Below, one piece after another: positions 6,843 through 29,587 of a stretch of 64,000 nucleotides of DNA (position 1 is its first letter; each line of letters opens with the position of its first letter). Source of the stretch: an uncultured Eubacteriales bacterium. GTDB taxonomy: Bacteria; Acidobacteriota; Aminicenantia; Aminicenantales; Saccharicenantaceae. Under the pieces are notes generated by a model. That model did no database searches. It was given only the letters and a program-made list of their open reading frames with translations, and was not told where the DNA came from. A program made the position numbers and the translations under genes. The DNA lies in contig CAZGJS010000002.1 of assembly GCA_964525875.1 (NCBI GenBank), forward strand, positions 118,577 to 182,576, written 5' to 3'.

Positions 6843-7225
6843 GGCCGGAGCGGGACGTAAGCCGGATCCTGTTCCCGCCGAAACGGGCGACGGTCATTTG
6901 ACTAGGCCCCGGGTTGCCCCGGGGCTCGAGCGGCCGACCCGCCCCCTGGGACGGGCAGTCCCAAAACGGGGCTCGTTTGGCCTTGCTCCGGATGGGGTTT
7001 GCCTTGCCCCCGTCATCGCTGACGGGGCGGTGAGCTCTTACCTCGCCATTTCACCCTTGCTCCCCGGGGAGGCTGCGCCTGCCCTGGAGGGCGGTGTGTT
7101 TTCTGTGGCACTTTCCCCCGGTCGCCCGGGGTCGCGGTTAGCGACCATCCTGCCCTTCGGAGTCCGGACTTTCCTCCCCTCCTCCCTCGCGGGAAGGAGC
7201 GGCGACCGTCTCGCCCACTCCGGCC
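6843..7225 (-). ncRNA. rnpB: RNase P RNA (bacterial type A)
   Basis: The reverse complement contains GGGAGGAGGGGAGGAAAGTCCGGACTCCGAAGGGCAGG and AGCAAGGGTGAAATGGCGAGGTAAGAGCTCACC. It also contains ACCCCATCCGGAGCAAGGCCAAA and CCTAGTCAAATGACCGTCGCC...GAACAGGATCCGGCTTACG. These align with E. coli M1 RNA conserved regions (P4, P10-12, P15-P18). The 5' GGAGTGGGCGA and 3' TCCCGCTCC can form P1. Ends are approximate to about 5 nt. Confidence 0.85.
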
Positions 7226-8592
7226 GTTATCTTTATACCGTATTGTTCGAGTTTTTTATAGAGGTTGCTCCGCGGCGTGTCGATCTCCCGGGCCGTCTGG
7301 GAGATGTTCCAGCCGTTGGCTTCGAGCTTGGCCAAAAGGAAATCCCGCTCGGCCAGGTCCCGGAATTCGCGGAGCGTCTTGACCCCGGCCGCTTCGGGCA
7401 GCGACGCCTCCGGCTTCTCCCGCAGCGGTTCGGGGAGATCCCTTCTCTCGATCGTGTCCCGGTCGGTCATGATCATCAGCCGCTCGACGATGTTTTTGAG
7501 CTCGCGAACGTTGCCCTTCCAGGCGTAGCGGGACATGGCTTCGAGGGCCTCAGCAGAGAACTTCCGCGGCCGAAAGTTATTCTCCTCGGCGAACGTCCGC
7601 GAAAAATAGTCGACGAGGAGCGGGATGTCCTCCGGCCTCTCGCGCAGGGGCGGCGAATAGAGGGGAACGACGTTGAGCCGGAAATAGAGGTCTTCCCTGA
7701 ACCTCCCTTCCTGAATCTCCTTGCGGAGGTCCTTGTTCGTCGCGGCGATGACGCGGACGTCGACCTTGGCGATACGGTTCGACCCGACTTTCTGGACCTC
7801 GCCCTCTTCGAGCACACGGAGGACTTTGGACTGCGTCCGGAGGCTCATATCGCCGATCTCGTCGAGAAAAATGGTGCCGCCCTCGGCCTGCTCGAACTTG
7901 CCCGTCTTCTTCTCCGTGGCCCCGGTGAAGGCGCCCTTCTCGTGGCCGAAAAGCTCGCTCTCGATGAGCTCCTCGGGGATGGCTGCGCAGTTGACCTGGA
8001 CGAACGTCTCCCGGGCCCGCAGGCTGTGGGTGTGGATGGAACGGGCGATGAGCTCTTTCCCCGTGCCGCTTTCGCCGTAGATCAGGACCGTGGCGTTGGT
8101 CGGCGCGATCTTGAGGATCTCCTTCCAGAGGTTCTGGATGGCGGGGTGGTTGCCGACAATCTCGTAGTGTTTCTCCGCCTTCTTCTTGAGGTCCTGGCAC
8201 TCGCGGGCGAGGCTCGTCTGCTTGAGGGCGTTGCGGATGCTGATGAGGACGCGCTCCCTGTGTAGCGGCTTCTCCAGGAAATCGAAAGCGCCCAGCTTGG
8301 TGGCCTCGACGGCCGCATGAATCGTGCCCTGTCCCGAGATCATGATGACGTCCGGGACGAAGGGCCTCTGCTTGAGCTCGGCCAGGACATCGAGGCCGCT
8401 CTTCCCCGGCATCTTGATGTCGAGAAGGACGAGGTCGATGCCGACGGTCCCACGAAGCGCTTCCAGGCCATCCTCGCCGGTCCCGGCCTCGAAAAAGTCG
8501 TATCCCTCGTACTCGAGGATCATCTTCAGGGATTTACGGATGTTCTCCTCGTCGTCGATGACGAGGATCCTCGCCTTCCTCTCTGGTTTCAT
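7138..8592 (-). CDS. sigma-54-dependent response regulator (NtrC/AtoC family)
   Basis: N-terminal receiver domain (ILVIDDEENIR...LVLLDIKMPG) and a sigma-54 AAA+ domain (VLIYGESGTGKELIARSIH, GAFTGA, ESELFGHEKGAF). A C-terminal Fis-type HTH ends at ...LYKKLEQYGIK. The ORF then runs on about 30 codons into rnpB before the first stop. Confidence 0.85.
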   Translation of the reverse strand: MKPERKARILVIDDEENIRKSLKMILEYEGYDFFEAGTGEDGLEALRGTVGIDLVLLDIKMPGKSGLDVLAELKQRPFVPDVIMISGQGTIHAAVEATKLGAFDFLEKPLHRERVLISIRNALKQTSLARECQDLKKKAEKHYEIVGNHPAIQNLWKEILKIAPTNATVLIYGESGTGKELIARSIHTHSLRARETFVQVNCAAIPEELIESELFGHEKGAFTGATEKKTGKFEQAEGGTIFLDEIGDMSLRTQSKVLRVLEEGEVQKVGSNRIAKVDVRVIAATNKDLRKEIQEGRFREDLYFRLNVVPLYSPPLRERPEDIPLLVDYFSRTFAEENNFRPRKFSAEALEAMSRYAWKGNVRELKNIVERLMIMTDRDTIERRDLPEPLREKPEASLPEAAGVKTLREFRDLAERDFLLAKLEANGWNISQTAREIDTPRSNLYKKLEQYGIKITAGVGETVAAPSREGGGEESPDSEGQDGR

Positions 8593-8773: not shown

Positions 8774-10156
8774 ATGATGGTGGCTAGGAATCTTCGGAAC
8801 GCGTCAGGACTTTCGGGCGGGCTCCTGTTTTTCTGCCTGATGGCCTCCCTCGTGTCTGCCCGGAGCGTGGAGAATCCCGGCAAATTCTTCGTCCTCGACA
8901 ACGGCATGCGCGTTTTCCTCTATGAAAAACGCGACCTGCCCCTCCTCCACGTCGTCACCGGCTTCGACGTCGGCTCCAAGAACGAAACCGACGAAACGAG
9001 CGGCCTGGTCCACCTCCTCGAGCACTGCATTCTCTTCCGGGGGACATCCTTCCGTTCCGGAGCCGAGGTCAGCGCCGATATCCGCCGTCATGGGGCCTAT
9101 TTCAACGCCAACACGGGACAGGACCTGTCCCTTTTCGAGATCTCTCTTCCCGCCGAGCACGCCGAATTCGCGCTCCGGAACCAGAAGGACATCCTCTTCG
9201 GGCTCGACTTGAGCCAGATCGAACTCGACGAGGAGAAGGAAGTCCTCCTCGAAGAGTACAACCAGATGGAGGACGATCCGCAGCGGAACGCGGTGGACCT
9301 CGTCCTCCAGGCCCTTTTCCCCGGACATCCCTATGGACGTTCGGTTTACGGACGGCGGGAGGTCATCCGAACGGCCACGGTCGAGGGGGTGCTCGGCTTT
9401 TACCGGAAATATTTCGTCGCCGATAACTGCGCGCTGGCCGTCGTCGGCGATTTCGCGACAGCCGACATGGAGCGGTTGGTCCGGGATGTCTTCGGCCCGC
9501 TGCCGAAAACGGGTCTCTCGCCCGAGACGTTTCCTGGCGCCCTCCCCTTGAAAAAAGCCGTCGTCCAGCGCTTCGAGCGCGATGTCGAGGACGCCTATCT
9601 TTTTATCGGCTTTGTGGCCCCGGACTACAACCACGCCGACCAGTACGCCATGAACGTGCTGGCGGAGGTGCTGGGCCGGGGGGTCAACCCCCTTCTCCCC
9701 GCCCAGCTCCAAAGAGAACGGGATTCGGTCCAGACCGTCTCCATGGCCTACCTCGCCTTGCGCTTCGGCGGAGCGGCGATCGTCTCCATTAAAATGACTC
9801 CCGGGGACATGCCGGCCATCTATCGCGCGGCCGTGGGATATCTCAAGCAGGCTCATAACGAAGCTTATTCGAAAAAGGATTTCATGGGCGAGGCCGAAAT
9901 GTCCGCCTTCGACTACCTAGAGAGCGCCAAAAATCAGATCCGGTTCGCCGTGGGGCGAGCCGAAGAATCCGGGCTGCAGCTGGCCGGATCGCTGGCCAGG
10001 CACCTCCTCCTCAACACGCGCGATAAAACCGGGCGATACCTGGATGAGATCGGGAGGGTCGATTCGAGCGACCTCAGAAAAACGGCGGCCAGGTACCTCG
10101 GCAAGGGCGAATACGTCGCCGTTTCCATCGTCCCGCGGAAGGGCGGAAAAGGATGA
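8774..10156 (+). CDS. M16 family zinc peptidase (insulinase/pitrilysin-like), catalytic subunit, secreted
   Basis: Inverted zinc-binding motif HLLEHCILFRGT (HxxEH) plus an N-terminal signal-like segment. The start at the internal ATG (MMVARNL...) is preferred. The tracked ORF begins at 8708. Confidence 0.8.
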   Translation: MMVARNLRNASGLSGGLLFFCLMASLVSARSVENPGKFFVLDNGMRVFLYEKRDLPLLHVVTGFDVGSKNETDETSGLVHLLEHCILFRGTSFRSGAEVSADIRRHGAYFNANTGQDLSLFEISLPAEHAEFALRNQKDILFGLDLSQIELDEEKEVLLEEYNQMEDDPQRNAVDLVLQALFPGHPYGRSVYGRREVIRTATVEGVLGFYRKYFVADNCALAVVGDFATADMERLVRDVFGPLPKTGLSPETFPGALPLKKAVVQRFERDVEDAYLFIGFVAPDYNHADQYAMNVLAEVLGRGVNPLLPAQLQRERDSVQTVSMAYLALRFGGAAIVSIKMTPGDMPAIYRAAVGYLKQAHNEAYSKKDFMGEAEMSAFDYLESAKNQIRFAVGRAEESGLQLAGSLARHLLLNTRDKTGRYLDEIGRVDSSDLRKTAARYLGKGEYVAVSIVPRKGGKG

Positions 10157-11478
10157 AACGCGCTCCGGCAACGCTTTTGTGCACGGCCCTCATGATGACG
10201 GGCTGGTCGGCCGGCCCTCGTGAGCTGCCCTGGAAGGAGCGCCCCGAAAAATTCACGCTGACGACCGGCCTCCCCTGCGTTTACCAGAAGGACAAGAGCT
10301 CGCCGACGACGGTCGTTGGGCTGTTCGCTCCAGGGGGCAAGTCGGCCGTGCCCAAGGCGCTCGACGGGTTGGCCTACCTCGCGACGCGCCTGACCCTCGA
10401 GATCCCCGACGAGGGCAAGGTCCAGGACCTCATGTCCCAGGCGACGCGGTTGAGCGTCCTCTGCTCGGAGGACTTCTCGGCTGTCCTCATCGAGTGCCTG
10501 TCTGAAAACCTCGAAGAGGCCCTCCGGGTGGCCGGCAAGATCATCCAGGACCCCCTCATCACAAGTCTCCGGATCGGCCGGACCAAAGAGATGATGAAGC
10601 TCTACGGGCGGTCCGAGGAGGACGAATCCACCATCGCCGCCCATAACGCCGTCATGAAGGCCTTTTTCGACGGAAACGGCTGCGGGACCGCCGTTTACGG
10701 GACGGAAGAGAGCCTCAGGGCCATCGACCGGAAGGACGCCCTCGCCTTTTACCGCCGCTTTTTCACCAAGCCGAACCTCTTTTTTTGTGTCGGGACGGAC
10801 CTCGAGAAGGAGCCGGTCCGGGCCCTCCTCGAGAAGTATTTCGCCAAGTTTCCGGATGGTGAAGCCGGGGGCATCGCTCCGGCCCCGCCGGCCCTTCCAT
10901 CCAACCGCAAGATCGTCCTTCCCAAGGACACGAAACAAACCTATATCAGCCGCGCCTTCGCGCTTCCGGCTCCGGACGCGCCCAACCAGGCCAAGGGATA
11001 CCTGCTCGAGACCCTTCTCGGGAAGGGCCCCGGATCGCGGCTCTGGGGATTGCGGATGACCGAAAAGCTGGCCTACAACGTCGACGCCCATGTGACGTGG
11101 ACGAAAAGCTCGGGAATCCTCGAGGCCTACCTGGAGACCGAGAACGCCAAGAGCCCCCGGGCGTCAGAGGCGCTCGACCGGACTCTCGCCGGCCTCCAGG
11201 ACAAAGGGATCACGGAGGAAGAACTCCGGACGACCAGGACGATGGCCAAGGCCCAGCTCCTTCGCGCGACGGAAGGCAAGGCCCCCCGGGTGCGAATTCT
11301 CGGGCTTTTCGAGGTCCTCGGGCTGGGCCATGGACATCTCGCGGGGCTCTTCGAAGCCATCGATGACGTCACGCTCGAGGACATGAACGCCTACATACGC
11401 GAGGCCCTCGCCCCCGAGAGGGCGCTCAAGGTGACCATCGGACCGGCTGGGACCGGTCAAACGCAAGGAGGCCGTTGA
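10153..11478 (+). CDS. M16 family peptidase, second (probably non-catalytic) subunit
   Basis: 441 aa protein with M16 fold features but no HxxEH motif. Its ATG overlaps the upstream M16 stop (ATGA) and it has a signal-like N-terminus. Confidence 0.7.
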   Translation: MKRAPATLLCTALMMTGWSAGPRELPWKERPEKFTLTTGLPCVYQKDKSSPTTVVGLFAPGGKSAVPKALDGLAYLATRLTLEIPDEGKVQDLMSQATRLSVLCSEDFSAVLIECLSENLEEALRVAGKIIQDPLITSLRIGRTKEMMKLYGRSEEDESTIAAHNAVMKAFFDGNGCGTAVYGTEESLRAIDRKDALAFYRRFFTKPNLFFCVGTDLEKEPVRALLEKYFAKFPDGEAGGIAPAPPALPSNRKIVLPKDTKQTYISRAFALPAPDAPNQAKGYLLETLLGKGPGSRLWGLRMTEKLAYNVDAHVTWTKSSGILEAYLETENAKSPRASEALDRTLAGLQDKGITEEELRTTRTMAKAQLLRATEGKAPRVRILGLFEVLGLGHGHLAGLFEAIDDVTLEDMNAYIREALAPERALKVTIGPAGTGQTQGGR

Positions 11479-12656: not shown

Positions 12657-15600
12657 CTACTCCGCCATTTTCTTGTAAGACGCGAAGCGCTTCTTGGCCT
12701 CCTCGGCGGCGCGGGCGAAGAGCTCCGTGGCGATTTCCGGGTTCTGCTGGACGAGCGTCCGGTAGCGGACCTCATTCTTGAGGAACGCGTCGTATTCGAG
12801 CTTGGGTTCCCGGGAGTCGAGCTGTAGCGGGTTTTTGCCTTCCTTGGCCAACAACGGGTTGAAACGATAGAGGATCCAGTAGCCCGTGTCCACGGCCAGC
12901 TTCATCTCGGCTTGGGCCTTGCTCATGTCGATACCGTGGTTGATGCACGGCGAGTAGGCGATGATGATCGCCGGGCCGGGAAAGGCCTCGGCCTCGAGGA
13001 AGGCCTTGAGGCACTGGTTCATGTTCGCGCCCATGGCCACGGACGCGACGTAGACGTAGCCGTAGCTCATGACCATCCGGCCGAGATCCTTCTTGGCCGT
13101 CTTCTTGCCCGAGGTGGCGAACTTGGCCACCGAGCCGAGCGGCGTGGCCTTGGAGGCCTGGCCGCCGGTGTTGGAATAGACTTCGGTGTCGAGGACAAGC
13201 ACGTTGATCTTGCGGTTCATGGCCAGGACGTGGTCGAGGCCGCCGTAGCCGATATCGTAGGCCCAGCCGTCGCCGCCGATGCACCAGACGCTTTTCTCGA
13301 CGAGGAAATCCTTGAGCTCGTCGACCTTCGTGAGATAGGGCTTGGCCCCGTTGGCCTTGGCCAGCGCCGCGGGCAGCGCGGCCCTGACCGCCTTGGCGGC
13401 GGCCTTGGCTTCCTCGCCCGTCGAAGTCCAGGCGCCCTTCATCTTGGCCAAAGCGTCCGTGAGCTCGGGCAGCGTTCCCGCGGCCAGGGCGCCTTCGATC
13501 GAAGCCGCCAGCAGACGGCGGTTGGCGTCAACGGCCAGGCGCATGCCGAAACCGTATTCGGCGTTGTCCTCGAAAAGGGAGTTGGCCCAGGCCGGCCCCT
13601 TGCCTTCGGCGTTCACGCAGTAGGGCGAGGTCGGGAACGTGCCGCCGTAGATCGACGAGCAGCCCGTGGCGTTGGCAATGATCATCCGGTCGCCGAAGAG
13701 CTGGGTGGCCAGCTTGACGTAGGGCGTTTCGCCGCAGCCGGCGCAGGCGCCGCTGAATTCGAACAGGGGCCTCAGGAACTGGCTGCCCTTGAGCGTGTCG
13801 GGCCTGATGCCGTCGACGACGTTGTCGGGGAGCCTGTCGAAGAATTCGGCCTTCTGGGTCTCGCCCGCAGCCCGCAGCTCCGCGATGGATGTCATGACCA
13901 GGGCCTTGTTCTTGGCCGGGCAAACCTGGGCGCACGAGCCGCACCCGACGCAGTCCTCGATGTAGCACTGGACGCGGTACTGGAGGACCCTGTCGTTCTT
14001 GGTGTTGGATTTGAGGGCGGTGAAACCCTGGGGAGCGCCCAGAAGGTCGGCCGGGGCGATCTGCTTGGCCCGGATCGAGGCGTGGGGGCAGACGAAGGAG
14101 CACTGGTTGCATTGGGTGCAGTTCTCGGGGATCCACTTCGGGCATTCGACGGCAATGCCGCGTTTTTCCAGACGGGAAGTCGCCGTGGGCACGGCTCCGT
14201 CGAGGGGCATCTTGGAGACGGGCAGGCTGTCGCCCTTGAACCGGGTGACGGGATCGATGACCTCCCGGGCGAAGGTGCCGGCGTCGTCGGGGACGATCTT
14301 GGTGACAGGGGCCGACTTGGTGATCTTGGCCGGGATGGGGATTTCTTCAAGGGCGGCGGCGGACCGGTCGACGGCGTCCCAGTTCATCTGGACGACTTCT
14401 TGGCCCTTGCGGACGTAAGTCTTTTCGATGGCCTTCTTGATGAGCTTGATGGCCTCGTCCCCGGGGAGGACTCCGGAGAGTTTGAAGAAGCAGGCCTGCA
14501 TGATCGAGTTGATACGCAGGCCCAGGCCGAGCTCGCCGGCGATCTTCAGGGCATCGATATTGTAGACCTTGACCTTCTTGGCGATGATCGTCTTCTGCAT
14601 GTCCTCGGTCAGGTTCTCGAAGACCTCGTCGGTCTTCCAGTTGGAGTTGATGAGGAACGTCCCGCCCTCGCGGATACCCTCGAGGATGTCCAGCCGCCCG
14701 ATATAAGACGGTTTGTGAAGGGCGACGAAATCGACCGTGCTGAGGAAGTACTGCGATTGGATGGGGCTTTTCCCGAAGCGGAGATGGGAGATGGTGACGC
14801 CGCCCGATTTTTTCGAGTCGTACTGGAAATAGCCCTGGCCGTACATGTCCGTGCTATCGGCGATGATCTTGATCGAGTTTTTGTTGGCGCCGACCGTCCC
14901 GTCCGAGCCGTAGCCGTAGAACTTGCAGCGGACCGTGCCGGGGAGCTCGGCGTCGATGGCCGGGCCGACGGGGATCGAAGTGTGGGCGACGTCGTCCGTG
15001 ATGCCTACGGTGAAGCCGTGCGTCGCCTGCCCGTCGAGATGGTCGTAGACGGCCTTGACCATGCTGGGGGTGAACTCCTTCGAGGAGAGGCCGTAGCGGC
15101 CGCCGATCGTCTTGACCGGCCGGCCGGAGAGGGCCAGGGCGACGTCGAGGTAGAGCGGCTCGCCGATCGAGCCGGGCTCCTTGGTCCTGTCGAGGACGGC
15201 GATCTTTTTCACCGAGGCCGGGATGGCCGCGAGGAGGGCGGCCGTATCGAAGGGGCGGTAGAGCCGGACCTTGACCAGCCCCAGCTTGGCCCCGCGCACG
15301 TTGAGGTAATTAATCGTTTCCTCGGCCGTTTCAGCGCCCGAACCCATCATGACGATGACCTTGTCGGCGTCGGGCGCCCCGAAATAGTCGAAGAGGTGGT
15401 ATTGACGGCCGATGACCTTGGCCACCTTGTCCATGTAATGCTGGACGAGGCCCGGGCACTCGGCGTAGTACTTGTTGACGGTCTCCCGTCCCTGGAAGTA
15501 TACGTCCGGGTTCTGCTGGCCGACCTTGAGCATGGGGCGCTCGGGGTTGAGGGAGCGTTTCCGGAATGCCTCGAGGTGCTCCGGCTCGAAGAGACCGGCC

Positions 15601-16187
15601 AGCGTCTCGTAGGAAACGAGGTCAACCTTCTCGACGACGTTCGAGGTCCGGAAGCCGTCGAAGAAGTGGAGGAAAGGGATCGTGCTCCGCAGGGTCGTCA
15701 AATAGGAGACGATGGCCAGGTCCTGGGCCTCCTGGACCGAGCCGGCGCAGGTCAGGGCGAAACCCGTGTTGCGGGCGGCCATGACATCGCTGTGGTCGCC
15801 GAAGATCGATAGCGACTGGCAGGCCAGCGACCGGGCCGAGACCAGGAAGAGCGTCGGCAGCATTTCGCCTGCGATCTTGTGCATGTTGGGGAGCATGAGC
15901 ATCAGGCCCTGGGACGCCGTGAAGGTCGTGGTCAGGGCGCCGGCCGAGAGAGCGCCGTGGACCGCGCCGGAGGCGCCGCCTTCGGACTGCATCTCGATGA
16001 CGTCCACCTGCTGGCCGAAAATGTTCTTCCGGCCTTCGGCGGACCACTCGTCGGCCAGTTCCCCCATCGTCGAGGACGGGGTGATCGGGTAGATGGCGGC
16101 TATCTCGGAATACGCGTAGGCGACGTGCGTCGCCGCCGTGTTCCCGTCGATCGTCTGCATATTCTTTTTCAAGTCGGACTCCTTCAA
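12657..16187 (-). CDS. nifJ: pyruvate:ferredoxin (flavodoxin) oxidoreductase, single-chain PFOR
   Basis: 1176 aa. N-terminus TIDGNTAATHVAYAYSEIAAIYPITPSS. Two ferredoxin-type 4Fe-4S motifs (CTQCNQCSFVCPHA, CVGCGSCAQVCP). TPP domain GGDGWAYDIGYGG. Confidence 0.95.
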   Translation of the reverse strand: MKESDLKKNMQTIDGNTAATHVAYAYSEIAAIYPITPSSTMGELADEWSAEGRKNIFGQQVDVIEMQSEGGASGAVHGALSAGALTTTFTASQGLMLMLPNMHKIAGEMLPTLFLVSARSLACQSLSIFGDHSDVMAARNTGFALTCAGSVQEAQDLAIVSYLTTLRSTIPFLHFFDGFRTSNVVEKVDLVSYETLAGLFEPEHLEAFRKRSLNPERPMLKVGQQNPDVYFQGRETVNKYYAECPGLVQHYMDKVAKVIGRQYHLFDYFGAPDADKVIVMMGSGAETAEETINYLNVRGAKLGLVKVRLYRPFDTAALLAAIPASVKKIAVLDRTKEPGSIGEPLYLDVALALSGRPVKTIGGRYGLSSKEFTPSMVKAVYDHLDGQATHGFTVGITDDVAHTSIPVGPAIDAELPGTVRCKFYGYGSDGTVGANKNSIKIIADSTDMYGQGYFQYDSKKSGGVTISHLRFGKSPIQSQYFLSTVDFVALHKPSYIGRLDILEGIREGGTFLINSNWKTDEVFENLTEDMQKTIIAKKVKVYNIDALKIAGELGLGLRINSIMQACFFKLSGVLPGDEAIKLIKKAIEKTYVRKGQEVVQMNWDAVDRSAAALEEIPIPAKITKSAPVTKIVPDDAGTFAREVIDPVTRFKGDSLPVSKMPLDGAVPTATSRLEKRGIAVECPKWIPENCTQCNQCSFVCPHASIRAKQIAPADLLGAPQGFTALKSNTKNDRVLQYRVQCYIEDCVGCGSCAQVCPAKNKALVMTSIAELRAAGETQKAEFFDRLPDNVVDGIRPDTLKGSQFLRPLFEFSGACAGCGETPYVKLATQLFGDRMIIANATGCSSIYGGTFPTSPYCVNAEGKGPAWANSLFEDNAEYGFGMRLAVDANRRLLAASIEGALAAGTLPELTDALAKMKGAWTSTGEEAKAAAKAVRAALPAALAKANGAKPYLTKVDELKDFLVEKSVWCIGGDGWAYDIGYGGLDHVLAMNRKINVLVLDTEVYSNTGGQASKATPLGSVAKFATSGKKTAKKDLGRMVMSYGYVYVASVAMGANMNQCLKAFLEAEAFPGPAIIIAYSPCINHGIDMSKAQAEMKLAVDTGYWILYRFNPLLAKEGKNPLQLDSREPKLEYDAFLKNEVRYRTLVQQNPEIATELFARAAEEAKKRFASYKKMAE

Positions 16188-18964: not shown

Positions 18965-19825
18965 GTGCGAGCGCGCTCCCGCAGCCTTCTCGAGATCCAC
19001 CTGGCCGTCTTCCTGTTCGGCTTCCCGGGGCTCTTCGGGAAGTGGCTCGCCCTCTCCCCTCCCGTCATTGTTTTTGGCCGGGTCCTTTTTGCTTCCCTGG
19101 CGCTTTTCGCGGTCCTGGGCTTCGGGCGGCGTTCGTTCCGGATCGTCCCGCGGCGGGACCTGGTCCTCCTTGCCGTCTGCGGGCTCGCCCTGGCCGCCCA
19201 CTGGACGATGTTCTTCAAGGCCGTCCAGGTCTCCTCGGTGGCCGTCGGCCTCCTCGCTTATGCGAGCTTCCCGGTTTTCACGGTCTTCCTGGAACCGCTT
19301 CTGACGAGGGAACGCTGGGATCCGGCCAGCCTCGGCTACGCCTTCCTCTGCGTCCTGGGCCTATACCTGATCATCCCGGGCTTCGACCCTTCCGACGCCA
19401 TCGTTCGCGGCGTCCTCTGGGGGCTTGGGTCGGGACTGACATTTTCCATACTGTCGATCCTCAACCGGGTCCTGGCCTCGCGGCAATCGAGCCTGGCCGT
19501 GGCTTTCTACCAGGACCTCTTCGCCGCCATCTTCCTGGTCCCGGCCGTCGTCCGGGCCGACTTCGCACTATCGCTTCGGGACTGGGGGCTCATTGCCGTA
19601 CTCGGCGTTCTCTTCACGGCTGGGGCCCATACCCTGTTCATCGACGGAATGAGGGAGGTCCGGGCCAGGACGGCGAGCATCCTGAGCTCGCTCGAGCCGG
19701 TTTACGGCATCCTCCTCGCCCTGCTCTTCCTTAAAGAAAGCCCCTCCCTGAGAACGGTCTCGGGAGGGGCTGTCGTTCTGGCTGCCGCGCTCGTGGCCAC
19801 GGTCCGGGCGCGGCGGACGTCCTAG
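18965..19825 (+). CDS. EamA/DMT family transporter
   Basis: This is the C-terminal, real part of long ORF 17672..19825. It has about 10 TM helices. It starts at a GTG about 10 nt after AGGAA. The upstream 430 aa of that ORF are antisense to dnaX and rejected. Confidence 0.7.
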   Translation: MRARSRSLLEIHLAVFLFGFPGLFGKWLALSPPVIVFGRVLFASLALFAVLGFGRRSFRIVPRRDLVLLAVCGLALAAHWTMFFKAVQVSSVAVGLLAYASFPVFTVFLEPLLTRERWDPASLGYAFLCVLGLYLIIPGFDPSDAIVRGVLWGLGSGLTFSILSILNRVLASRQSSLAVAFYQDLFAAIFLVPAVVRADFALSLRDWGLIAVLGVLFTAGAHTLFIDGMREVRARTASILSSLEPVYGILLALLFLKESPSLRTVSGGAVVLAAALVATVRARRTS

Positions 19826-20994
19826 TTCTTGTCGATCTTCTTCCTGACCGGCGCTTTCTTCGTCTTCGCTTCCTCCGCCTTCTGCCGCTCCGTCATCTCG
19901 GCCTTCTCTTCTTCGTGTTTTTTCTTCAGCTCGGCGATCTTAGACTTGACTTGGCCGTCCACCTTCTGCTTCTCGGCCGGGTTTTGGATCTTCGCCTTTT
20001 CGTCATCGGCCTTGCGCCGAATCTCGTTGACCTCGGACTCCTGGCTCTCCTTCATGAGCGTCGCTTCCTGGTCGTGGGCTTGCCGCAGCGCGGTGCTCTC
20101 GGCGCGGGGAACACGGCGGAAAATACTGACACCCTGCTCGTTGTCGACCTGTTCCGCGGCCCTTTCCTGATCGATGACCTGCTTCGGCTTGGACGCTTCG
20201 TTTCGGGAGACTTTGGGTTTGTAGATGATCACGTCGTTGCCCTCGACCCGTTCTTCTCCCGCCCGCGACGCTTCTTTCAGCGCGTACTTGTCGACGGTGC
20301 TGTTGGTCCACCGGCGGACCTGGTCGACATCCACGCCGTCATTGACCACCCTGTTGTCGCGAACGTTGACGTTGACGTTGATGATGGTATTGTTGATGAT
20401 GGTGACGTTCCTCTCGACCGGCAGGATCCAGTGGTCGAGCGACCGGTCCATGAAATCACGGCCGCGGACGAAATTCCAGTGGTGACCGGGGATGTTCCAA
20501 TCGCGCCTGCCGAAACCGCGTCCGGGGTGGAAGTCCACGCCGGGCGGAAGAGGCGCCCATCCGATATGCGTGTCACCCCATCTCCAAGCCACCCAGGCCG
20601 GGCCCCAAACGACGTCGGGGACCCAGAACCAGCCCATCCGCCGGTCCCAACCCCAACGGCCGTAATGATAGGCGATCCAGCCCCAGCGCTCGAGGGAAAC
20701 CCACGTCCACCCGTAATCCGTCCAGGCCCAGTGCCCCCTCGAATAGGGACGCCACTTGTAGCCTACGTCCCGGGGGATCCAGACGTAACCAAAAGGAGAA
20801 TTGGACACCCAAATTCCATACGGCTGAAGCTGGTCATAAAAGTACGAGGTGTCCAGGTCGCCGTAAGGGGCCCTGTCGGCCTGGTACGGGTTTTCTTGAG
20901 GCGGTCTCGGCTGGGATTCGTCGTAGGGAACGTAGACTAAACAGCCCGCGCTCATCAGAATGACGAGAATCAGGAAGCCCAGGATCTTTTTCAT
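19822..20994 (-). CDS. Trp-rich repeat lipoprotein with Lys/Glu-rich C-terminal tail, unknown function
   Basis: Lipoprotein signal (LILVILMSAGC) with AGGAGG 7 nt upstream. Residues about 60-150 carry degenerate repeats: GYVWIP, GYKWRP, GHWAWTDYGWTWV, GWIAYHYGRWGW, MGWFWVP, WGPAWVAWRWG. A middle Asn/Val-rich segment is followed by a charged K/E-rich C-terminus. Confidence 0.6.
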   Translation of the reverse strand: MKKILGFLILVILMSAGCLVYVPYDESQPRPPQENPYQADRAPYGDLDTSYFYDQLQPYGIWVSNSPFGYVWIPRDVGYKWRPYSRGHWAWTDYGWTWVSLERWGWIAYHYGRWGWDRRMGWFWVPDVVWGPAWVAWRWGDTHIGWAPLPPGVDFHPGRGFGRRDWNIPGHHWNFVRGRDFMDRSLDHWILPVERNVTIINNTIINVNVNVRDNRVVNDGVDVDQVRRWTNSTVDKYALKEASRAGEERVEGNDVIIYKPKVSRNEASKPKQVIDQERAAEQVDNEQGVSIFRRVPRAESTALRQAHDQEATLMKESQESEVNEIRRKADDEKAKIQNPAEKQKVDGQVKSKIAELKKKHEEEKAEMTERQKAEEAKTKKAPVRKKIDKN

Positions 20995-21103
20995 CTCGCT
21001 CCTCCTAAACCGCTAATTTGCAAGGAATATGCCAAAACACATTTCAGGCTGCTCAAAAGGCCTTGGAGAGCCCGTTTGTCCTAAAAAATGGACAACGTCG
21101 CCC

Positions 21104-21149: not shown

Positions 21150-22385
21150 TCAGGCCAGCCTCTTGAAGACGGTCTTGATGCGCTTGAGGGCCCAGTTGAG
21201 ATCCTTCTCCCGGATGATGAGCGGAGGCGCCAAGCGGATGACGTTGTCGTGGGTTTCCTTGCAGAGGAGGCCTTCCTTCATCAGCTCCTCGCAGAATCGC
21301 CGGGCGCCCCCGGCCCCCGGATGAAGCTCGATGCCGATGAGAAGCCCGCGGCCGCGGACCTCCCTGATGTGCCGGCTGCGGACCTTGCGCAGCTTTTCCA
21401 TGAAGGACCGGCCACGCTCGGCCGCGTTCTCGACGAGCTTCTCCTCCCGGATGACGCGCAGGCTTTCCCGGGCCACGGCGCAGCCGAGGGGGTTTCCCCC
21501 GAAGGTCGAGCCGTGCTCGCCGGGCTTGAAGACGCCGAGGATCTCCCGGTCGGCCAGGACCGCGGAAATGGGGTAGCAGCCTCCGCCCAAGGACTTGCCG
21601 ATGACGACCATGTCGGGCCTCACGTCCTCGAATTCACAAGCGAACAGCTTGCCCACCCGGCCGAGACCGGTCTGGATCTCGTCGGCGATGAAGAGGACGT
21701 TGTTTCTCTTGCAGATCTCGGCGGCTCTCTTGAGGAACCCGGCGGGGGGGATGAGGATCCCCGCTTCGGCCTGGATCGGTTCGACGATGAAGGCGGCCGT
21801 GTTAGGGGTGATGGCCTTCTCCAAAGCATCCGCGTCGCCGAAGGGGACGATGGTGAAACCCGGCGTGAAGGGGCCGAAATCCTTGCGGTAGAGGGGTTCG
21901 GTCGAGAAACTGATGACCGTGACAGTACGGCCATGGAAGTTGTTGGCGCAGGCGATGATCTCGGCCCTGTCCTGGGGAACGCCCTTGGTCACATAAGCCC
22001 ACTTGCGCGCCGTCTTGACGGCGGTTTCGACGGCTTCGGCCCCTGAATTCATGGGCAGGACCATGGAGTAGCCGGTCATTTCGCAAAGTTCCTTGGCCAG
22101 CATCGGCCACTGGTCGTTGCGGAACGCCCGGGAGGTCAGGGTCAGCTTGCGGGTCTGTTCGACGAGAGCCCGGACGATCCGGGGATGGCGGTGGCCCTGA
22201 TTGACGGCGGAGTAGGCGCTCAGGCAATCGAGGTACTTGCGGCCTTCGACGTCATACATCCAGATCCCCTGGGCTTTGGCGATAACGACATCGAGCGGAT
22301 GGTAGTTGTGGGCCCCGTAGAGGTCTTCCACCACGATGAGGTCTTTGCTGTCCATGTCATGTCTCCTTAAGGTTTTTTCTACCAC
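21150..22385 (-). CDS. rocD: ornithine--oxo-acid aminotransferase (class III PLP aminotransferase)
   Basis: 411 aa with DLYGAHNYHPLDVV, the OAT N-terminal signature. Also FIADEIQTGLGRVGK and GKSLGGG, with the PLP lysine region. Confidence 0.85.
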   Translation of the reverse strand: MVEKTLRRHDMDSKDLIVVEDLYGAHNYHPLDVVIAKAQGIWMYDVEGRKYLDCLSAYSAVNQGHRHPRIVRALVEQTRKLTLTSRAFRNDQWPMLAKELCEMTGYSMVLPMNSGAEAVETAVKTARKWAYVTKGVPQDRAEIIACANNFHGRTVTVISFSTEPLYRKDFGPFTPGFTIVPFGDADALEKAITPNTAAFIVEPIQAEAGILIPPAGFLKRAAEICKRNNVLFIADEIQTGLGRVGKLFACEFEDVRPDMVVIGKSLGGGCYPISAVLADREILGVFKPGEHGSTFGGNPLGCAVARESLRVIREEKLVENAAERGRSFMEKLRKVRSRHIREVRGRGLLIGIELHPGAGGARRFCEELMKEGLLCKETHDNVIRLAPPLIIREKDLNWALKRIKTVFKRLA

Positions 22386-22406: not shown

Positions 22407-22498
<92 letters not shown>

Positions 22499-22948: not shown

Positions 22949-23040
22949 TGGCGGAGAGGGCGGGATTCGAACCCGCGATCCCAATCGCTCGAGATAACGG
23001 TTTTCGAGACCGTCGCCTTCAACCACTCGGCCACCTCTCC
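22949..23040 (-). tRNA. tRNA-Ser (anticodon CGA)
   Basis: Reverse complement GGAGAGGTGGCCGAGTGGTTGAAGGCGACGGTCTCGAAAACCGT...CGCGGGTTCGAATCCCGCCCTCTCCGCCA. Anticodon loop CTCGAAA, long variable arm. The 3' 29 nt are identical to the other tRNA-Ser. Confidence 0.9.
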
Positions 23041-23084: not shown

Positions 23085-23534
23085 CTATTTCTTTCTACGG
23101 GCGCGGAAGAAGTCGCGGAGGAGCTTGGCGCACTCGTCGGCGAGGACGCCGCCGACGATTTCGGGCCGGTGATTGGTCCGCTCGAAGGGGAACTTCATGA
23201 TCGAGGAAACGGCGCCGGCCTTTGGATCGAGCGCGCCGAAGACCAGGCGGCGGATGCGGGCTTGGACGAGGGCGCCAAGGCACATCGCGCAAGGTTCGAC
23301 CGTCACGTAGATGTCACAGTCCGGGAGGCGGTAGTTCCCTGCCTTCCGGCAGGCGCTTCGAAGGGCGACGATTTCGGCGTGGGCCGTGGGGTCGGAGCTC
23401 TTGACAGGCTTGTTCGAACCGCGGGAGACGATGCGGCCGTCCCGGACGACGACGGCGCCAATTGGGACCTCTCCTGCCGTCGCGGCCTTGGCCGCTTCTT
23501 GAAGGGCCGTTTTCATGAAAACGACGTCGTCCAT
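23085..23534 (-). CDS. tadA: tRNA-specific adenosine deaminase
   Basis: 149 aa with a CDA zinc motif HAEIVAL ... PCAMCLGAL and typical TadA length. It lies 45 nt upstream of tRNA-Ser(CGA). Confidence 0.9.
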   Translation of the reverse strand: MDDVVFMKTALQEAAKAATAGEVPIGAVVVRDGRIVSRGSNKPVKSSDPTAHAEIVALRSACRKAGNYRLPDCDIYVTVEPCAMCLGALVQARIRRLVFGALDPKAGAVSSIMKFPFERTNHRPEIVGGVLADECAKLLRDFFRARRKK

Positions 23535-26863: not shown

Positions 26864-29587
26864 CTAGTACCGCGGATCCTTGAGAACGGAGGCGGACGCG
26901 GTCTGCGTCTTGCCGTCGACCGAGAGGACGAACCTGTATTCGCCGGGTTGAACGGGGAACGAAGCGGAGGCCGTCTGTTCGCGCCGGCCGGTCATGTTCC
27001 AGAAGGCCTTGTTCAGCCCGACGTCGGCCGTGCCCTTGATCTCGTTGAGCAGCATGTTGCCGGCGTAGACCTGGAGCTTCACTTCGCCCTTCGGCTTGGC
27101 CTTGAGGCTGTAATAAACGACCATTCCCGCGGGCTCGCTCTCGCCGGCGAAGTTCGAAGAGCCCGATTCACGCCGGTTCGTGCCGACCCAGCGGACCTTG
27201 GATTCGATCGCGAAAAGGTGGACGTCCTCGGCCAGAACCTCGGATGTGAGCTCCTGGAGCGGCTTGATGTCGGCGATATAAGCGCCCCGGCCGTGCGTCG
27301 CGACGATGAGGTCGGCCTCCCTCGGATGGACCTTGAGATCATGGACGGGTTGAGTCGGCAAGTCGTTTTTCATCTTCATCCACGACTTGCCGCCGTCGAT
27401 CGAGACATACACGCCGAAGTCCGTCCCCGCGAAGAGGAGGTTCGGATTCTTGACGTCTTCCCGGACGACGTTGACCGGCCCCTCGGCGAGTCCCCCGGCG
27501 AGGGACGTCCAGGTGGCGCCGTAGTCTGTCGTCTTGTAGAGGAACGGGCGGAAATCGTCGTTGCGGAGACCCGTATAGCTAACGTAAGCCGTCCCCGGGT
27601 CGAAGTTCGAGGCCGCGACGCGACTGACCCAGTAGCCCGGATTTCCCGCGATCTTGTCGTTGAGCTTGGTCCAGGCCTTGCCGTTGTCCCGGCTGACCCA
27701 GACGTTTCCGTCGTCCGTGCCGGCCCAGAGCAGGCCGGGGACGAGCGGCGACTCATCGAAGGTCGTGATCGTGCAGTATTGGATATTCCCGTCGCCGCCC
27801 TTGCCCTCGACCGTGAGCTTGGCCGGGTCGTTCGTCGTCAGGTCGGGGCTGATCTCCGTCCAGGACTCGCCGCGGTTCAAGGACATGACGACGATGTTGC
27901 CGCAGTGATAGACCGTATCGCTGTTATGGTAGGAGACATGGATGGGGGCGCACCAGTTCCAGCGCGTTTCGGGTTTCAGCCGCTGGTAGGCAATGCCCTT
28001 GGCCTCCCCCGTCACGAGGTCGATCCGGGTGAGGGGCCCGAACTGGGACTCGTTGTAAAGGTAACGGTTCGTGGCCCGGTCGAAGACGTTGTACATTCCG
28101 TCTCCGCCGCCGACGCTGAACCAATCCTCGAGGCGGATGGGCGGCCCGGGCGGGATGCCGCCGCCGGTCACGCCCCGCCTGCCGGAGGGACCGGCGCCGG
28201 GCTTGGTGCTCGGCCCCAAAAGAGAGCCGTTGTCCTGGAGGCCGCCGGCCACCCTGTAGGGATAGGACATGTCGAAGTCGATGGCGTAGAACTGGGCCAG
28301 GGAAAGGAAATCCGGATGATACCAGTTCTTGCCGCCGTCCCAGGTCACGCCCAGCCCGTGGTCGTAGCCGAGGAGCATGTGGTTGCTGTCCTCGGGGTCG
28401 ATCCAGAGGGCGTGGTTGTCGCCGCCGAACTGGAAAGGCGCGATCCACGTCTTCCCGCCGTCACGGCTGGCCAGGACGCCGACGCTCAGGATGAAGACGT
28501 TATCGTCGTTCGTCGGGTCGATGATGATCTGCCCGTAGTAATAACCCGGCGCGCCGCCGATGCTTCGCTTGTCCGGGCTGACTTTGCGCCAGGTCGATCC
28601 GGCGTCGTCGGTGCGATAGATCTCCCCGTCGATCATGCCCTGGCTCGTCTTGCCGTCGACGATTTCCTTCCAGCGGTCCTCGGGAGACATGCCCGGCTTG
28701 TTGGCGTTCTCGACCATGGCGTAGAGGACCTTCGGGTTCTTCGGGGAAATGGCCAGGCCGATGCGGCCGAGGATGCCGCCGGGAAGGCCGTTCGTGAGCT
28801 TTGTCCAAGTCCTGCCGCCGTCGGCCGTCTTATGGACGCCGGAGCCCGGCCCGCCGAGCTGGAACGTCCAGGGCTTGCGGAGCCGGTCATAGGAGGCGGC
28901 ATAGAGCGTCTCCGGGTCGGCCGGGTCCATGACCAAATCGACGACTCCGATCGTCCGCCCGGCGGCGGCGACGTCGAGGACCTTGGTCCACATGATGCCA
29001 CCGTCGGTCGTCTTGTAAACGCCGCGCTCGGCGTTTTCCGAGTAGAGGTGGCCCAGGGCGGCCACGTAGACGATGTCGGCGTTGGCCGGGCTGATGACGA
29101 CCCGCCCGATATGATGGGATTCCTTGAGACCCATGTTGCGCCAGGTCTTGCCGGCGTCGGCGGACTTGTAGACGCCGTCCCCCCAGTAGGTCGAGCGCGA
29201 GTTGTTGGCCTCGCCCGACCCCAGCCAGAGGATGTCGGGGTTGGACGGGGCCACGGCGACGTCGCCGATCGAGAAGACCTTCTCGTTCTCGAAAAGCGGT
29301 TCGAACGTCTGACCGTTATTCTCCGTCTTCCACAGCCCGCCCGAAGCCGCGGCCGCGTAGAACGTGTTCGGCCGCTGGAGCGGGACGGCGAAATCGACGA
29401 ATCGGCCGCTCTGCTGGGTCGGCCCGATGGAACGATAATCAAGAGTTTTCAGGATCTCCGCGACGTTGAGAGGAGCCGCGACCGGTGTCCTGGCCTTGAC
29501 CACGACCCGCCCCTGGGACAGGACGCCCGACGGAGCGATCATGAGAAGAGCCATGACCAGAGCTGCGATAGTGAGCTTGCGTATCAT
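26864..29587 (-). CDS. secreted BNR/Asp-box repeat beta-propeller protein (sortilin/VPS10-like)
   Basis: Signal peptide plus at least 9 Asp-box motifs (SADAGKTW, TTDGGIMW, TADGGRTW, TDDAGSTW, SRDGGKTW, WDGGKNW, SRDNGKAW, TTDYGATW, SIDGGKSW). 907 aa. Confidence 0.75.
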   Translation of the reverse strand: MIRKLTIAALVMALLMIAPSGVLSQGRVVVKARTPVAAPLNVAEILKTLDYRSIGPTQQSGRFVDFAVPLQRPNTFYAAAASGGLWKTENNGQTFEPLFENEKVFSIGDVAVAPSNPDILWLGSGEANNSRSTYWGDGVYKSADAGKTWRNMGLKESHHIGRVVISPANADIVYVAALGHLYSENAERGVYKTTDGGIMWTKVLDVAAAGRTIGVVDLVMDPADPETLYAASYDRLRKPWTFQLGGPGSGVHKTADGGRTWTKLTNGLPGGILGRIGLAISPKNPKVLYAMVENANKPGMSPEDRWKEIVDGKTSQGMIDGEIYRTDDAGSTWRKVSPDKRSIGGAPGYYYGQIIIDPTNDDNVFILSVGVLASRDGGKTWIAPFQFGGDNHALWIDPEDSNHMLLGYDHGLGVTWDGGKNWYHPDFLSLAQFYAIDFDMSYPYRVAGGLQDNGSLLGPSTKPGAGPSGRRGVTGGGIPPGPPIRLEDWFSVGGGDGMYNVFDRATNRYLYNESQFGPLTRIDLVTGEAKGIAYQRLKPETRWNWCAPIHVSYHNSDTVYHCGNIVVMSLNRGESWTEISPDLTTNDPAKLTVEGKGGDGNIQYCTITTFDESPLVPGLLWAGTDDGNVWVSRDNGKAWTKLNDKIAGNPGYWVSRVAASNFDPGTAYVSYTGLRNDDFRPFLYKTTDYGATWTSLAGGLAEGPVNVVREDVKNPNLLFAGTDFGVYVSIDGGKSWMKMKNDLPTQPVHDLKVHPREADLIVATHGRGAYIADIKPLQELTSEVLAEDVHLFAIESKVRWVGTNRRESGSSNFAGESEPAGMVVYYSLKAKPKGEVKLQVYAGNMLLNEIKGTADVGLNKAFWNMTGRREQTASASFPVQPGEYRFVLSVDGKTQTASASVLKDPRY

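Follow-up and report, generated by a model that had tools for sequence, protein, structure and literature searches.

Among sigma-54 systems, GlrK/GlrR (QseE/QseF) is linked to the cell envelope, and the outer-membrane lipoprotein QseG is required for GlrK/QseE activity. GlrR recognizes the consensus TGTCN10GACA, and in E. coli it acts with IHF from three sites that lie over 100 bp upstream (PMC3045617). A Proteus study places qseE-qseG-qseF in one locus (PMC8745638). A further sigma-54 regulon, that of PrsK/PrsR, comprises PEP-CTERM proteins (Haft et al. 2006, PMC1569441).

The locus analyzed here lies in a 64-kb window (the whole stretch of DNA under study) and encodes a lipoprotein of the DUF6600 family. 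Its predicted regulatory module resembles the GlrK/GlrR system of Enterobacteriaceae, which also combines a sigma-54 promoter, TGTC-N10-GACA sites and a REC-AAA+-HTH regulator. However, GlrR uses its three distal sites with IHF, whereas the present locus has one site at about -77, and the GlrR targets are the sRNAs glmY/glmZ, whereas the targets of the present module are genes for secreted proteins. The PrsR regulon is likewise composed of many single-gene operons for secreted proteins in sediment and soil bacteria, with an activator motif and a sigma-54 promoter. The PrsR motif, however, has TTTACA within it and a spacer averaging 63 nt, and so differs from the present palindrome, and the PEP-CTERM sorting signal of its regulon proteins is missing from the present protein.

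The DUF6600 gene and its conservation

The gene and the parts of its product are as follows, with the basis of each call in brackets.

19822..20994, minus strand: coding sequence of the DUF6600 lipoprotein, 390 aa plus stop (ORF list, translation, orthologues)
21000..21006, minus strand: ribosome-binding site AGGAGGA, 6-12 nt before the ATG (upstream sequence)
20941..20994, minus strand: signal peptide with lipobox, aa 1-18, MKKILGFLILVILMSAGC, with the Cys18 codon at 20941-20943 (sequence)
20863..20940, minus strand: Pro/Tyr/Asp-rich linker, aa 19-44 (composition)
20170..20862, minus strand: predicted single compact globular domain, aa 45-275 (AF2; homology in distant relatives)
20542..20838, minus strand: Trp-rich block matching Pfam DUF6600 (PF20245), aa 53-151 (Pfam HMM)
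19825..20169, minus strand: K/E-rich tail, predicted helical, aa 276-390 (composition, AF2)

The ORF starts with ATG and contains all peptides quoted in the initial annotation, which had not given its strand. A chance ORF is excluded, because the gene has a GC3 of 0.79, is preceded by the AGGAGGA site and has 6236 homologues at E<=1e-3, the best 120 of which are full length with 56-90% identity. The ribosome-binding site is kept in an anchored alignment of 44 loci. The initial annotation had also allowed for a non-functional low-complexity ORF that would be absent or disrupted in relatives; what was found instead are full-length orthologues down to 40% identity at the syntenic position. Apart from its odd composition, nothing points to such an ORF, and the 12,264 representative clusters of the family, the confident fold prediction and the conserved ribosome-binding site and promoter all speak against it, so that its probability is vanishingly small and conservation already refutes it.

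The N-terminus consists of a basic n-region (MKK), a hydrophobic stretch (ILGFLILVILM) and the sequence SAG-C18. The lipobox is atypical in having Ser rather than Leu at position -3, which the PROSITE lipoprotein pattern PS51257 permits, and the lipobox-type Cys18 is invariant in 26/26 aligned orthologues, which upholds the lipobox proposed at first. The protein would thus be lipidated at Cys18 and would reside in the cell envelope. Among the N-termini of 145 diverse relatives, 59 are lipobox-like and 79 carry another hydrophobic signal. The linker that follows is probably flexible: it is the least conserved region (45% mean identity), with a pLDDT of about 30-44 in the AF2 model built from an alignment of 26 close orthologues.

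Although the protein had been considered not assignable to a named family, residues 53-151 match Pfam DUF6600 with a score of 114.6 bits (cut-off 27; E=2.6e-33), covering positions 1-100 of the 102 in the profile, and close relatives carry the NCBI name "DUF6600 domain-containing protein". The family comprises 12,264 clusters at 50% identity and occurs in Acidobacteriota, Proteobacteria, Verrucomicrobia and others. Among its culturable carriers is Cupriavidus metallidurans CH34, whose chromid has a DUF6600 gene of 847 aa. No function is recorded in the Pfam entry, and literature searches for DUF6600 and PF20245 returned no matching paper in the collection covered; since the family is catalogued without known function, the match does not assign the block to a well-characterized domain. 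An NCBIfam scan of the 390-aa protein gave no match, PDB sequence searches, run with the protein alone and with a profile, returned only low-complexity noise from the tail, and no catalytic domain was detected, in line with the reported lack of catalytic motifs. DUF6600 proteins exist in two forms, a short lipoprotein such as the present one and a long one whose N-terminus carries a FecR domain. No fused domain was seen in the long close relatives, and jackhmmer with the FecR segment found nothing among 273 proteins, which places the FecR fusion in a DUF6600 subfamily further removed from the present protein.

The Trp-rich block, the core domain and the tail

The Trp-rich block and the Asn/Val stretch described initially are both present. 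Residues 53-151 contain 18 Trp (18% of 99 residues), 12 Gly and 8 Tyr; in total, the protein has 22 Trp (5.6%). The Asn/Val stretch lies at about residues 196-218. The Trp/Gly block is common to the present protein and diverse DUF6600 members: in 146 diverse sequences, 14 of its 18 Trp positions are Trp in >=92%, and the invariant residues are G60, W62, P83, G87, W89, Y111, G112, W114, W124, P126, W130, P132, V135 and W146.

AF2 modeling with the 146-sequence alignment gave a mean pLDDT of 96.2 and a pTM of 0.92 for the domain of residues 45-275. The model built from the 26 close orthologues, with a mean pLDDT of 47.9, was dropped for the domain and kept only for the tail helices. The predicted domain consists of an N-terminal helix, four Trp-rich β-hairpins and an α/β part that includes the Asn/Val stretch. 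The Pfam profile spans only residues 53-151, whereas the homology of distant relatives covers query residues of about 45-270 and the confident model reaches about residue 275 as one domain. The initial description of tandem repeats holds only loosely: the Trp region has no tandem repeat at the DNA level and weak internal protein similarity (37% over 19 aa, E=0.015 in a single comparison), and its units appear in the model as four β-hairpins inside one globular domain.

The stretch HWAWT-DY-GWTWV is predicted to form a tight hairpin in which Trp alternates with other residues along each strand, as in the tryptophan-zipper β-hairpins (WTW...WTW) that Cochran et al. reportedly designed in 2001; the likeness is one of sequence pattern only. 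A fold search of the PDB and BFVD with the core model returned no structural neighbor, and no solved structure of DUF6600 was found. Among described families, the β-flower or Tubby-like lipoproteins (PF21784-6; Durairaj et al. 2023, PMC10584680) are likewise hairpin-built folds of bacterial lipoproteins that lacked a PDB match in standard searches. Comparison with known aromatic binding repeats (choline-binding, GW/SH3b, WXXGXW PF12779 and β-flower PF21784-6) gave neither a profile match nor fold similarity.

These comparisons give no structural support to the glycan, membrane or peptidoglycan interaction suggested initially. They bear on the possibility that the Trp block is a lectin- or CBM-like module which binds glycan or peptidoglycan and so tethers the lipoprotein to a polysaccharide or the sacculus. 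Surfaces rich in aromatic residues are a typical mark of carbohydrate binding, a homologue in Legionella adelaidensis lies beside two α-amylase-family genes, another (L087) lies beside GH123 and GH43 genes, and the promoter module of the DUF6600 gene is also found at the gene of a CBM9/DUF5916 protein. However, the hydrolase neighbors are not recurrent, no known binding repeat was matched in Pfam at E<=1, and the model shows no likeness to solved CBM, LysM, SPOR, SH3b, OmpA-like or choline-binding folds. The Trp residues are also nearly invariant across more than 12,000 clusters, which suits core packing, and to judge from this conservation they may fit structural packing at least as well as ligand binding. 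We therefore regard a glycan-binding role as unlikely, and naming any ligand of the Trp domain would be speculative. Such a role would be compatible with the sigma-54 regulation proposed below, differing only in that it names the ligand.

The helical K/E-rich tail noted initially is borne out by composition and modeling: residues 276-390 are 46% KRED and 16% hydrophobic, residues 271-390 include 29 K+R and 26 D+E, and helices are predicted at 299-335 and 339-378 (block pLDDT 62-86 in the 26-orthologue model). Polar tails are found family-wide, with a median of 136 aa, 36% KRED and 11% hydrophobic residues. An Lpp-like coiled coil was considered for the tail and rejected, because in the best heptad register only 7/23 a/d positions are hydrophobic, with Ala counted as hydrophobic. 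The C-terminus (...KTKKAPVRKKIDKN) contains neither a PEP motif nor a transmembrane helix.

Promoter, palindrome and genomic context

The following elements surround the gene.

21019..21034, minus strand: predicted sigma-54 (-24/-12) promoter TGGCATATTCCTTGCA, GG at 21033-21032 and GC at 21021-21020 (motif search)
21077..21094, no strand assigned: palindrome TGTCCATTTTTTAGGACA of the TGTC-N10-GACA type (single site in the window)
21150..22385, minus strand: class-III aminotransferase (rocD-like), upstream neighbor (Pfam Aminotran_3, E=2.7e-130)
18965..19825, plus strand: EamA transporter, convergent neighbor (Pfam EamA)

The predicted promoter has GG at -24 and GC at -12 in exact spacing (TGGCAC-N5-TTGCW) and is the sole match to TGGCAY-N5-TTGCW in the 64 kb, where 0.05 matches are expected. 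The strict motif occurs in 49/79 related loci, mostly at -40 (+/-1) from the ATG, out of a total of 54 occurrences in 1.86 Mb on both strands; allowing one relaxed position raises the number of promoter-bearing loci to 60. The strict promoter is missing from about 19 Aminicenantes loci, among them an AT-rich clade without any form of it, and upstream of the examined DUF6600 homologues from outside Aminicenantes it was absent except for one candidate (L089). Judged by these motifs, transcription would start near 21008 and expression would depend on sigma-54 and an activator. No rpoN gene was seen within the window, and literature searches combining Aminicenantes and sigma-54 returned nothing.

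The palindrome (half-sites TGTCC-N8-GGACA) lies upstream of the promoter, 42 nt from the -24 element, and fits the GlrR consensus. It was found in 47 of the 60 promoter-bearing loci at a fixed offset of -57 to -62 or -66 to -70, and is probably where a sigma-54 activator (enhancer-binding protein) binds. One candidate regulator, a REC-Sigma54_activat-HTH_8 protein, is encoded in the window at 7138-8592 on the minus strand, 12 kb from the DUF6600 gene. It scores below every NCBIfam cut-off (GlrR 351.7 vs 763; PrsR 395 vs 502.6) and could be assigned by these profiles neither to GlrR nor to PrsR; its AtoC, NtrC and NtrX scores exceed its GlrR score while all remaining below their own cut-offs.

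The palindrome could alternatively be the terminator hairpin of rocD, with the lipoprotein gene tied to rocD/EamA amino-acid metabolism. A consensus scan does place a terminator-like site at 21103-21090, and the order rocD-DUF6600-EamA is conserved across Aminicenantes, with the palindrome and promoter between rocD and the DUF6600 gene and the EamA stop codon overlapping that of the lipoprotein by 4 nt. However, the half-sites are conserved while the spacer varies, the T-run falls inside the loop (an A-run in one clade), the position of the palindrome is fixed relative to the -24 element, and the same palindrome and promoter pair precedes unrelated genes elsewhere. As for the metabolic tie, synteny is lost outside the lineage, EamA is dispensable, being missing between the DUF6600 gene and dnaX in two loci (L017 and L037), and the dnaX-ybaB-recR neighbors are housekeeping genes. 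Both parts of this reading thus appear highly improbable. The co-conservation with rocD and EamA that the initial annotation proposed to check is accordingly real within Aminicenantes and does not extend beyond it; it is lineage synteny. An operon with rocD/EamA was also rejected, given the gene's own promoter and palindrome, the loss of synteny and the dispensable EamA. The neighborhoods of distant homologues are inconsistent and contain no conserved partner gene.

Among the metagenome matches listed, which are of unassigned taxonomy and of which by our estimate roughly tens may be due to chance, the palindrome-promoter gap is phased at about 30, 40 or 50 bp. In these matches the module also stands before many other genes whose products are secreted or belong to the outer membrane, and DUF6600 genes are its commonest target.

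This prominence, together with the GlrR/QseF-type activator site, raises the question of whether the lipoprotein, by analogy with QseG, might act as an accessory protein or co-sensor in the two-component system by which its own promoter is activated, and hence be a part of the signaling itself. The qseE-qseG-qseF arrangement described in Proteus (PMC8745638) would offer a precedent, and one DUF6600 gene (L090) is directly followed by genes for a histidine kinase and a sigma-54 response regulator. However, this adjacency is single and anecdotal, the Aminicenantes gene sits amid housekeeping genes with no kinase or regulator adjoining, and the protein resembles no solved protein in sequence or fold. 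We consider a co-sensor role rather improbable.

Proposed role in the envelope

On balance, we slightly favor a sigma-54-driven single-gene unit whose product is an exported envelope lipoprotein belonging to an envelope regulon. The DUF6600 gene would form its own transcription unit under the sigma-54 promoter, probably activated by an NtrC-family enhancer-binding protein through the TGTC-N10-GACA palindrome, centered about 77 bp before the inferred start. The product would be exported and lipid-anchored at Cys18. Behind the anchor would come a flexible linker (about 26 residues), a single rigid domain (about 230 residues) built by the packing of four Trp-zipper-like β-hairpins with an α/β part, and a charged tail of about 115 residues resembling single helices. 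Because the module precedes many genes for secreted and outer-membrane proteins, we read the lipoprotein as a possible inducible, periplasm-facing component of this regulon; its Trp domain may serve as a rigid scaffold or binding module, and its tail as a polar spacer or interaction arm.

More tentatively, and with appreciable doubt, we hypothesize that an undescribed envelope regulon with sigma-54 promoters and GlrR-like TGTC-N10-GACA sites may operate in Aminicenantes and related, probably acidobacterial, sediment bacteria, that DUF6600 proteins, in both the short and the FecR forms, may be its signature output and perhaps a QseG-like co-sensor within it, and that the 230-residue core may have a fold of a new kind, based on Trp zippers and lacking any solved relative.

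DUF6600 ranks among the larger protein families without a function, and the very confident model provides, with residues 45-275, domain boundaries and a construct for structural work. The regulatory hypothesis is precise, pairing a sigma-54 promoter with TGTC-N10-GACA at helically phased distances, and can be used in reporters, DNA-binding assays and phylogenetic profiling for the cognate activator. The locus thereby points to a candidate regulon of uncultured sediment bacteria that comprises secreted and outer-membrane proteins and, if confirmed, would extend envelope signaling logic of the GlrR/QseF type far outside Enterobacteriaceae.

A DUF6600 lipoprotein with one Trp-packed domain

Translation of the 390-aa ORF matched the sequence quoted in the initial annotation exactly, confirming its observation; its interpretation was partly supported. 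The GC3 of the ORF is 0.79.

Features of the gene and its product (minus strand; residues in protein numbering)
19822-20994: DUF6600 lipoprotein ORF, 390 aa, ATG start (translation)
6-12 nt 5' of the ATG: ribosome-binding site AGGAGGA (upstream sequence)
Residues 1-18: N-terminus MKKILGFLILVILMSAGC (read from the translation)
Residues 53-151: Trp block, 18 Trp, 12 Gly and 8 Tyr per 99 residues
Near residues 196-218: Asn/Val-rich segment (composition)
Residues 271-390: charged tail, 29 K+R and 26 D+E
First element of domain 45-275: N-terminal helix (AF2)
60-65/69-74: beta-hairpin 1 (AF2)
87-92/95-100: beta-hairpin 2 (AF2)
111-117/121-130: beta-hairpin 3 (AF2)
135-139/143-148: beta-hairpin 4 (AF2)
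After the hairpins, within 45-275: alpha/beta part, including the Asn/Val strands (AF2)

The initial annotation could not assign the architecture to a named family; the HMM search proposed there matched the Trp block to Pfam DUF6600 (PF20245; residues 53-151; score 114.6 bits, cut-off 27 bits; E=2.6e-33), and the protein is a further member of this catalogued family without assigned function. NCBIfam and PDB sequence searches with the protein returned nothing meaningful, and the literature searched contained no mention of "DUF6600" or "PF20245". The exceptional Trp content of the block holds, but "tandem repeats" was an overstatement, since no DNA-level tandem repeat was found in the Trp region and internal protein similarity is weak (YGIWVSNSPFGYVWIPRDV versus YGRWGWDRRMGWFWVPDVV, 37% identity, E=0.015 for that single comparison).

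A word-indexed protein search gave 6236 homologues. The best 120 of these are all 386-404 aa long, with 56-90% identity over 88-100% of the query (coverage at least 95% in all but one), and originate, where named, from Candidatus Aminicenantes or Acidobacteriota MAGs; the ORF is thus neither absent nor disrupted in close relatives. Across 26 aligned orthologues, essentially every Trp is invariant, as is Cys18, in agreement with the proposed lipobox, and mean identity to the window protein is 84% in the Pfam block (53-151), 63% in residues 152-275, 55% in the tail (276-390) and 45% in the linker (19-44). When 1.84 billion cluster representatives were scanned exhaustively with HMMER, 12,264 matched at E<=1e-3, 2,734 of them at E<=1e-30; homology extends well past the Pfam model, because the alignments typically cover query residues about 45-270, often reaching about 380. 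The plan is constant in 145 diverse representatives. A signal peptide (lipobox-like in 59, of another hydrophobic type in 79) comes first, the core of ~237 residues begins after a median of 41 residues, and the protein closes with a polar tail of 1-361 residues (median 136; 36% KRED, 11% hydrophobic). A Pfam scan of ten long close relatives (558-728 aa) found no domain besides DUF6600.

AF2 modeling with close orthologues only did not resolve the domain (mean pLDDT 47.9), and gave tail helices at 299-335 and 339-378 (block pLDDT 62-86), in line with the helical Lys/Glu tail predicted initially. With 146 diverse sequences, residues 45-275 form one compact domain (mean pLDDT 96.2, pTM 0.92), so that the architecture comprises a lipobox, a linker, one 230-residue Trp-packed domain and a charged helical tail. 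The HWAWT-DY-GWTWV hairpin follows the pattern of designed tryptophan zippers, a likeness in sequence only. That the Trp residues are nearly invariant speaks for a role in structural packing, but is compatible with an aromatic binding face as well. By a heptad test the tail is not a coiled coil (7 of 23 a/d positions hydrophobic); it resembles a charged single helix or a spacer.

Gene neighbourhood, promoter and palindrome

Almost every Aminicenantes locus keeps the gene order tadA–rocD-like aminotransferase–DUF6600–EamA (opposite strand)–dnaX–ybaB–recR, even where identity of the DUF6600 protein falls to 40%. The suggested co-conservation with rocD and EamA therefore stands within Aminicenantes, but the order is lost in other lineages and EamA is missing from two loci (L017 and L037). 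An operon with rocD/EamA was rejected, as the synteny is lineage-level around housekeeping genes and carries no operon evidence. The lipoprotein (39-91% identity) diverges much faster than rocD (72-96%), and comparison of neighbourhoods around distant homologues revealed no shared partner gene. The stretch between the rocD-like and TadA-like genes holds two tRNA-Ser genes (22407-22498 and 22949-23040, both minus; anticodons GGA and CGA). The region is flanked on one side by a 1176-aa single-chain pyruvate:ferredoxin oxidoreductase (12657-16187, minus) and on the other by a 907-aa Sortilin/BNR-repeat protein (26864-29587, minus), the latter also found close to the orthologous locus in L001.

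Elements upstream of the DUF6600 gene
40 nt before the ATG, minus: sigma-54 -24/-12 element TGGCATATTCCTTGCA (motif match)
21077-21094: palindrome, TGTCC-N8-GGAC(A/G) type
23085-23534, minus: TadA-like tRNA adenosine deaminase gene

TGGCATATTCCTTGCA, a canonical -24/-12 element, is the sole sigma-54 motif match in the window (0.05 expected). The strict motif occurs in 49 of 79 related loci, mostly at -40 (±1) from the ATG, and only 54 times in the whole 1.86 Mb examined on both strands; relaxing one position (CGGCAT, Saccharicenans clade) brings 60 loci to qualify. When 44 upstream regions were anchored on the motif, only the promoter, the ribosome-binding site and the palindrome were conserved. 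The palindrome is present in 47 of the 60 promoter-bearing loci, 57-62 nt upstream of the promoter motif start, or 66-70 nt, one helical turn more, in the Saccharicenans clade. The conserved DUF6600 gene is preceded by a sigma-54 promoter that is itself conserved and by a palindrome in phase with it. Conserved half-sites around an A/T-rich spacer that varies and can have either polarity speak for a protein-binding site over a rocD terminator hairpin. The sigma-54 activator GlrR/QseF has the published binding consensus TGTC-N10-GACA (PMC3045617), to which the palindrome conforms.

An AT-rich Aminicenantes clade (loci L043, L057, L058, L060-L062, L065, L066 and L079) keeps the syntenic lipoprotein. 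Promoter and palindrome are absent upstream in these loci, where A/T-rich regions show sigma-70-like features, and regulation has therefore been replaced in that lineage. At the more distant locus L089, a sigma-54-like -24/-12 element, GGGCACGCTTCTTGCC (about 3912-3927), lies 89 nt before the called start (4001) of a 487-aa DUF6600 gene whose product shares just 36% identity with the window protein, a hint that the sigma-54 link may reach more distant family members.

The palindrome–promoter module in metagenomes

An exact-pattern scan of metagenome contigs (palindrome, N30-50, promoter) returned at least 120 instances. The counts in this section refer to the 120 matches listed.

Gaps and first ORFs of the module among the matches listed
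Gap 30-31 nt: 20 instances
Gap 39-41 nt: 69 instances
Gap 49-50 nt: 14 instances
Other gaps: 17 instances
Acidobacterial VWFA-related proteins (TIGR03436): ten first ORFs
143-aa secreted proteins: five
Tyr/Trp-rich lipoproteins with basic tails: four
TPR proteins: three
Small lipoproteins: three
FadL/TodX-type outer-membrane proteins: two
CBM9/DUF5916 protein: one

Phasing is strong, with 103 of 120 matches on 7 of the 21 allowed gap values (P about 1e-32), and extends to instances lacking DUF6600 (62 of 75). A DUF6600 core lies downstream in at least 45 instances (45 among the 120 listed), about six of these genes being of the short form, like the window gene; in 38 of 45 the core begins 222-265 residues from the promoter end, consistent with long-form proteins. 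The only long form read full length (contig L170, 7695-9647, 650 aa) starts with a signal peptide and an N-terminal region, followed by DUF6600 and a tail rich in Ser, Pro and Arg. Pfam detected a FecR domain only on the similar but truncated protein of contig L191, and for the other long forms the FecR fusion is a prediction; six further contigs end within proteins clustering with that of L191. The N-terminal region of L170 resembles the L191 FecR segment. In L170, L118 (10399-12519) and L153 (4318-6546), the long form with its module is followed by a ~260-aa membrane or lipoprotein-like gene (9898-10692, 12733-13509 and 7009-7809, respectively).

The other first ORFs fall into the recurrent families tabulated, and 41 of 57 in-phase first ORFs have a signal-peptide-like N-terminus, placing the same module ahead of many secreted-protein genes. 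On contigs L163, L148, L181 and L203 the first ORFs encode ~200-aa lipoproteins with an extreme Tyr/Trp/Gly-rich segment (e.g. YYWGYYPYSYYWGRGYYYPYG) and a basic Ser/Thr/Arg tail; Pfam gave no match for this family, whose design echoes the window lipoprotein.

Sigma-54 activators and a proposed envelope regulon

NtrC-family activator of the window and overlapping gene
7138-8592, minus: sigma-54 activator, REC-Sigma54_activat-HTH_8, GAFTGA motif
6843-7221, minus: class-A RNase P RNA gene, 267.9 bits

The one NtrC-family activator encoded in the window, 12 kb from the DUF6600 gene, reached none of the NCBIfam equivalog cut-offs and cannot be tied to the palindrome at 21077-21094. Over its last ~84 nt the ORF runs into the 5' end of the RNase P RNA gene; since the HTH_8 match stops at residue 451 of the 484, this overlap may encode a dispensable C-terminal extension. 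On one contig, L090 (4001-8350), genes for a histidine kinase (HisKA, HATPase_c) and a REC-Sigma54_activat-HTH_8 response regulator come directly after a 529-aa DUF6600 gene, ahead of which no sigma-54 promoter was found.

We infer that the window protein is an exported, lipid-anchored, activator-induced component of an envelope regulon under a GlrR-like regulator. This reading fits the title of PMC3162934, which calls sigma-54 "a central controller of the bacterial exterior". As in the PrsK/PrsR sigma-54 regulon of PEP-CTERM proteins, with its single-gene operons and secreted products (PMC1569441), the module set includes single-gene operons for secreted proteins; unlike that regulon, the activator motif differs and the window locus has no PEP-CTERM signal.

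Proteobacterial members include an 800-aa protein on a Legionella adelaidensis plasmid and one of 847 aa encoded by the chromid of Cupriavidus metallidurans CH34 (locus L085, 4194-6737; NC_007974.2, about 539.9-542.5 kb), whose Q/R-rich C-terminal tail has >250 residues of QQMDQQRQAQERQ-like repeats and which has no entry in the PLSDB gene table. A GGDEF/EAL-like gene adjoins it. The Cupriavidus gene may offer a genetic handle, its host being culturable. Speculatively, the domain could have a glycan, peptidoglycan, the membrane or a protein as its partner, or could act as a co-sensor in the manner of QseG; what the window locus adds to the family is the definition of a domain without any solved structural relative and a regulatory link to sigma-54 and TGTC-N10-GACA.
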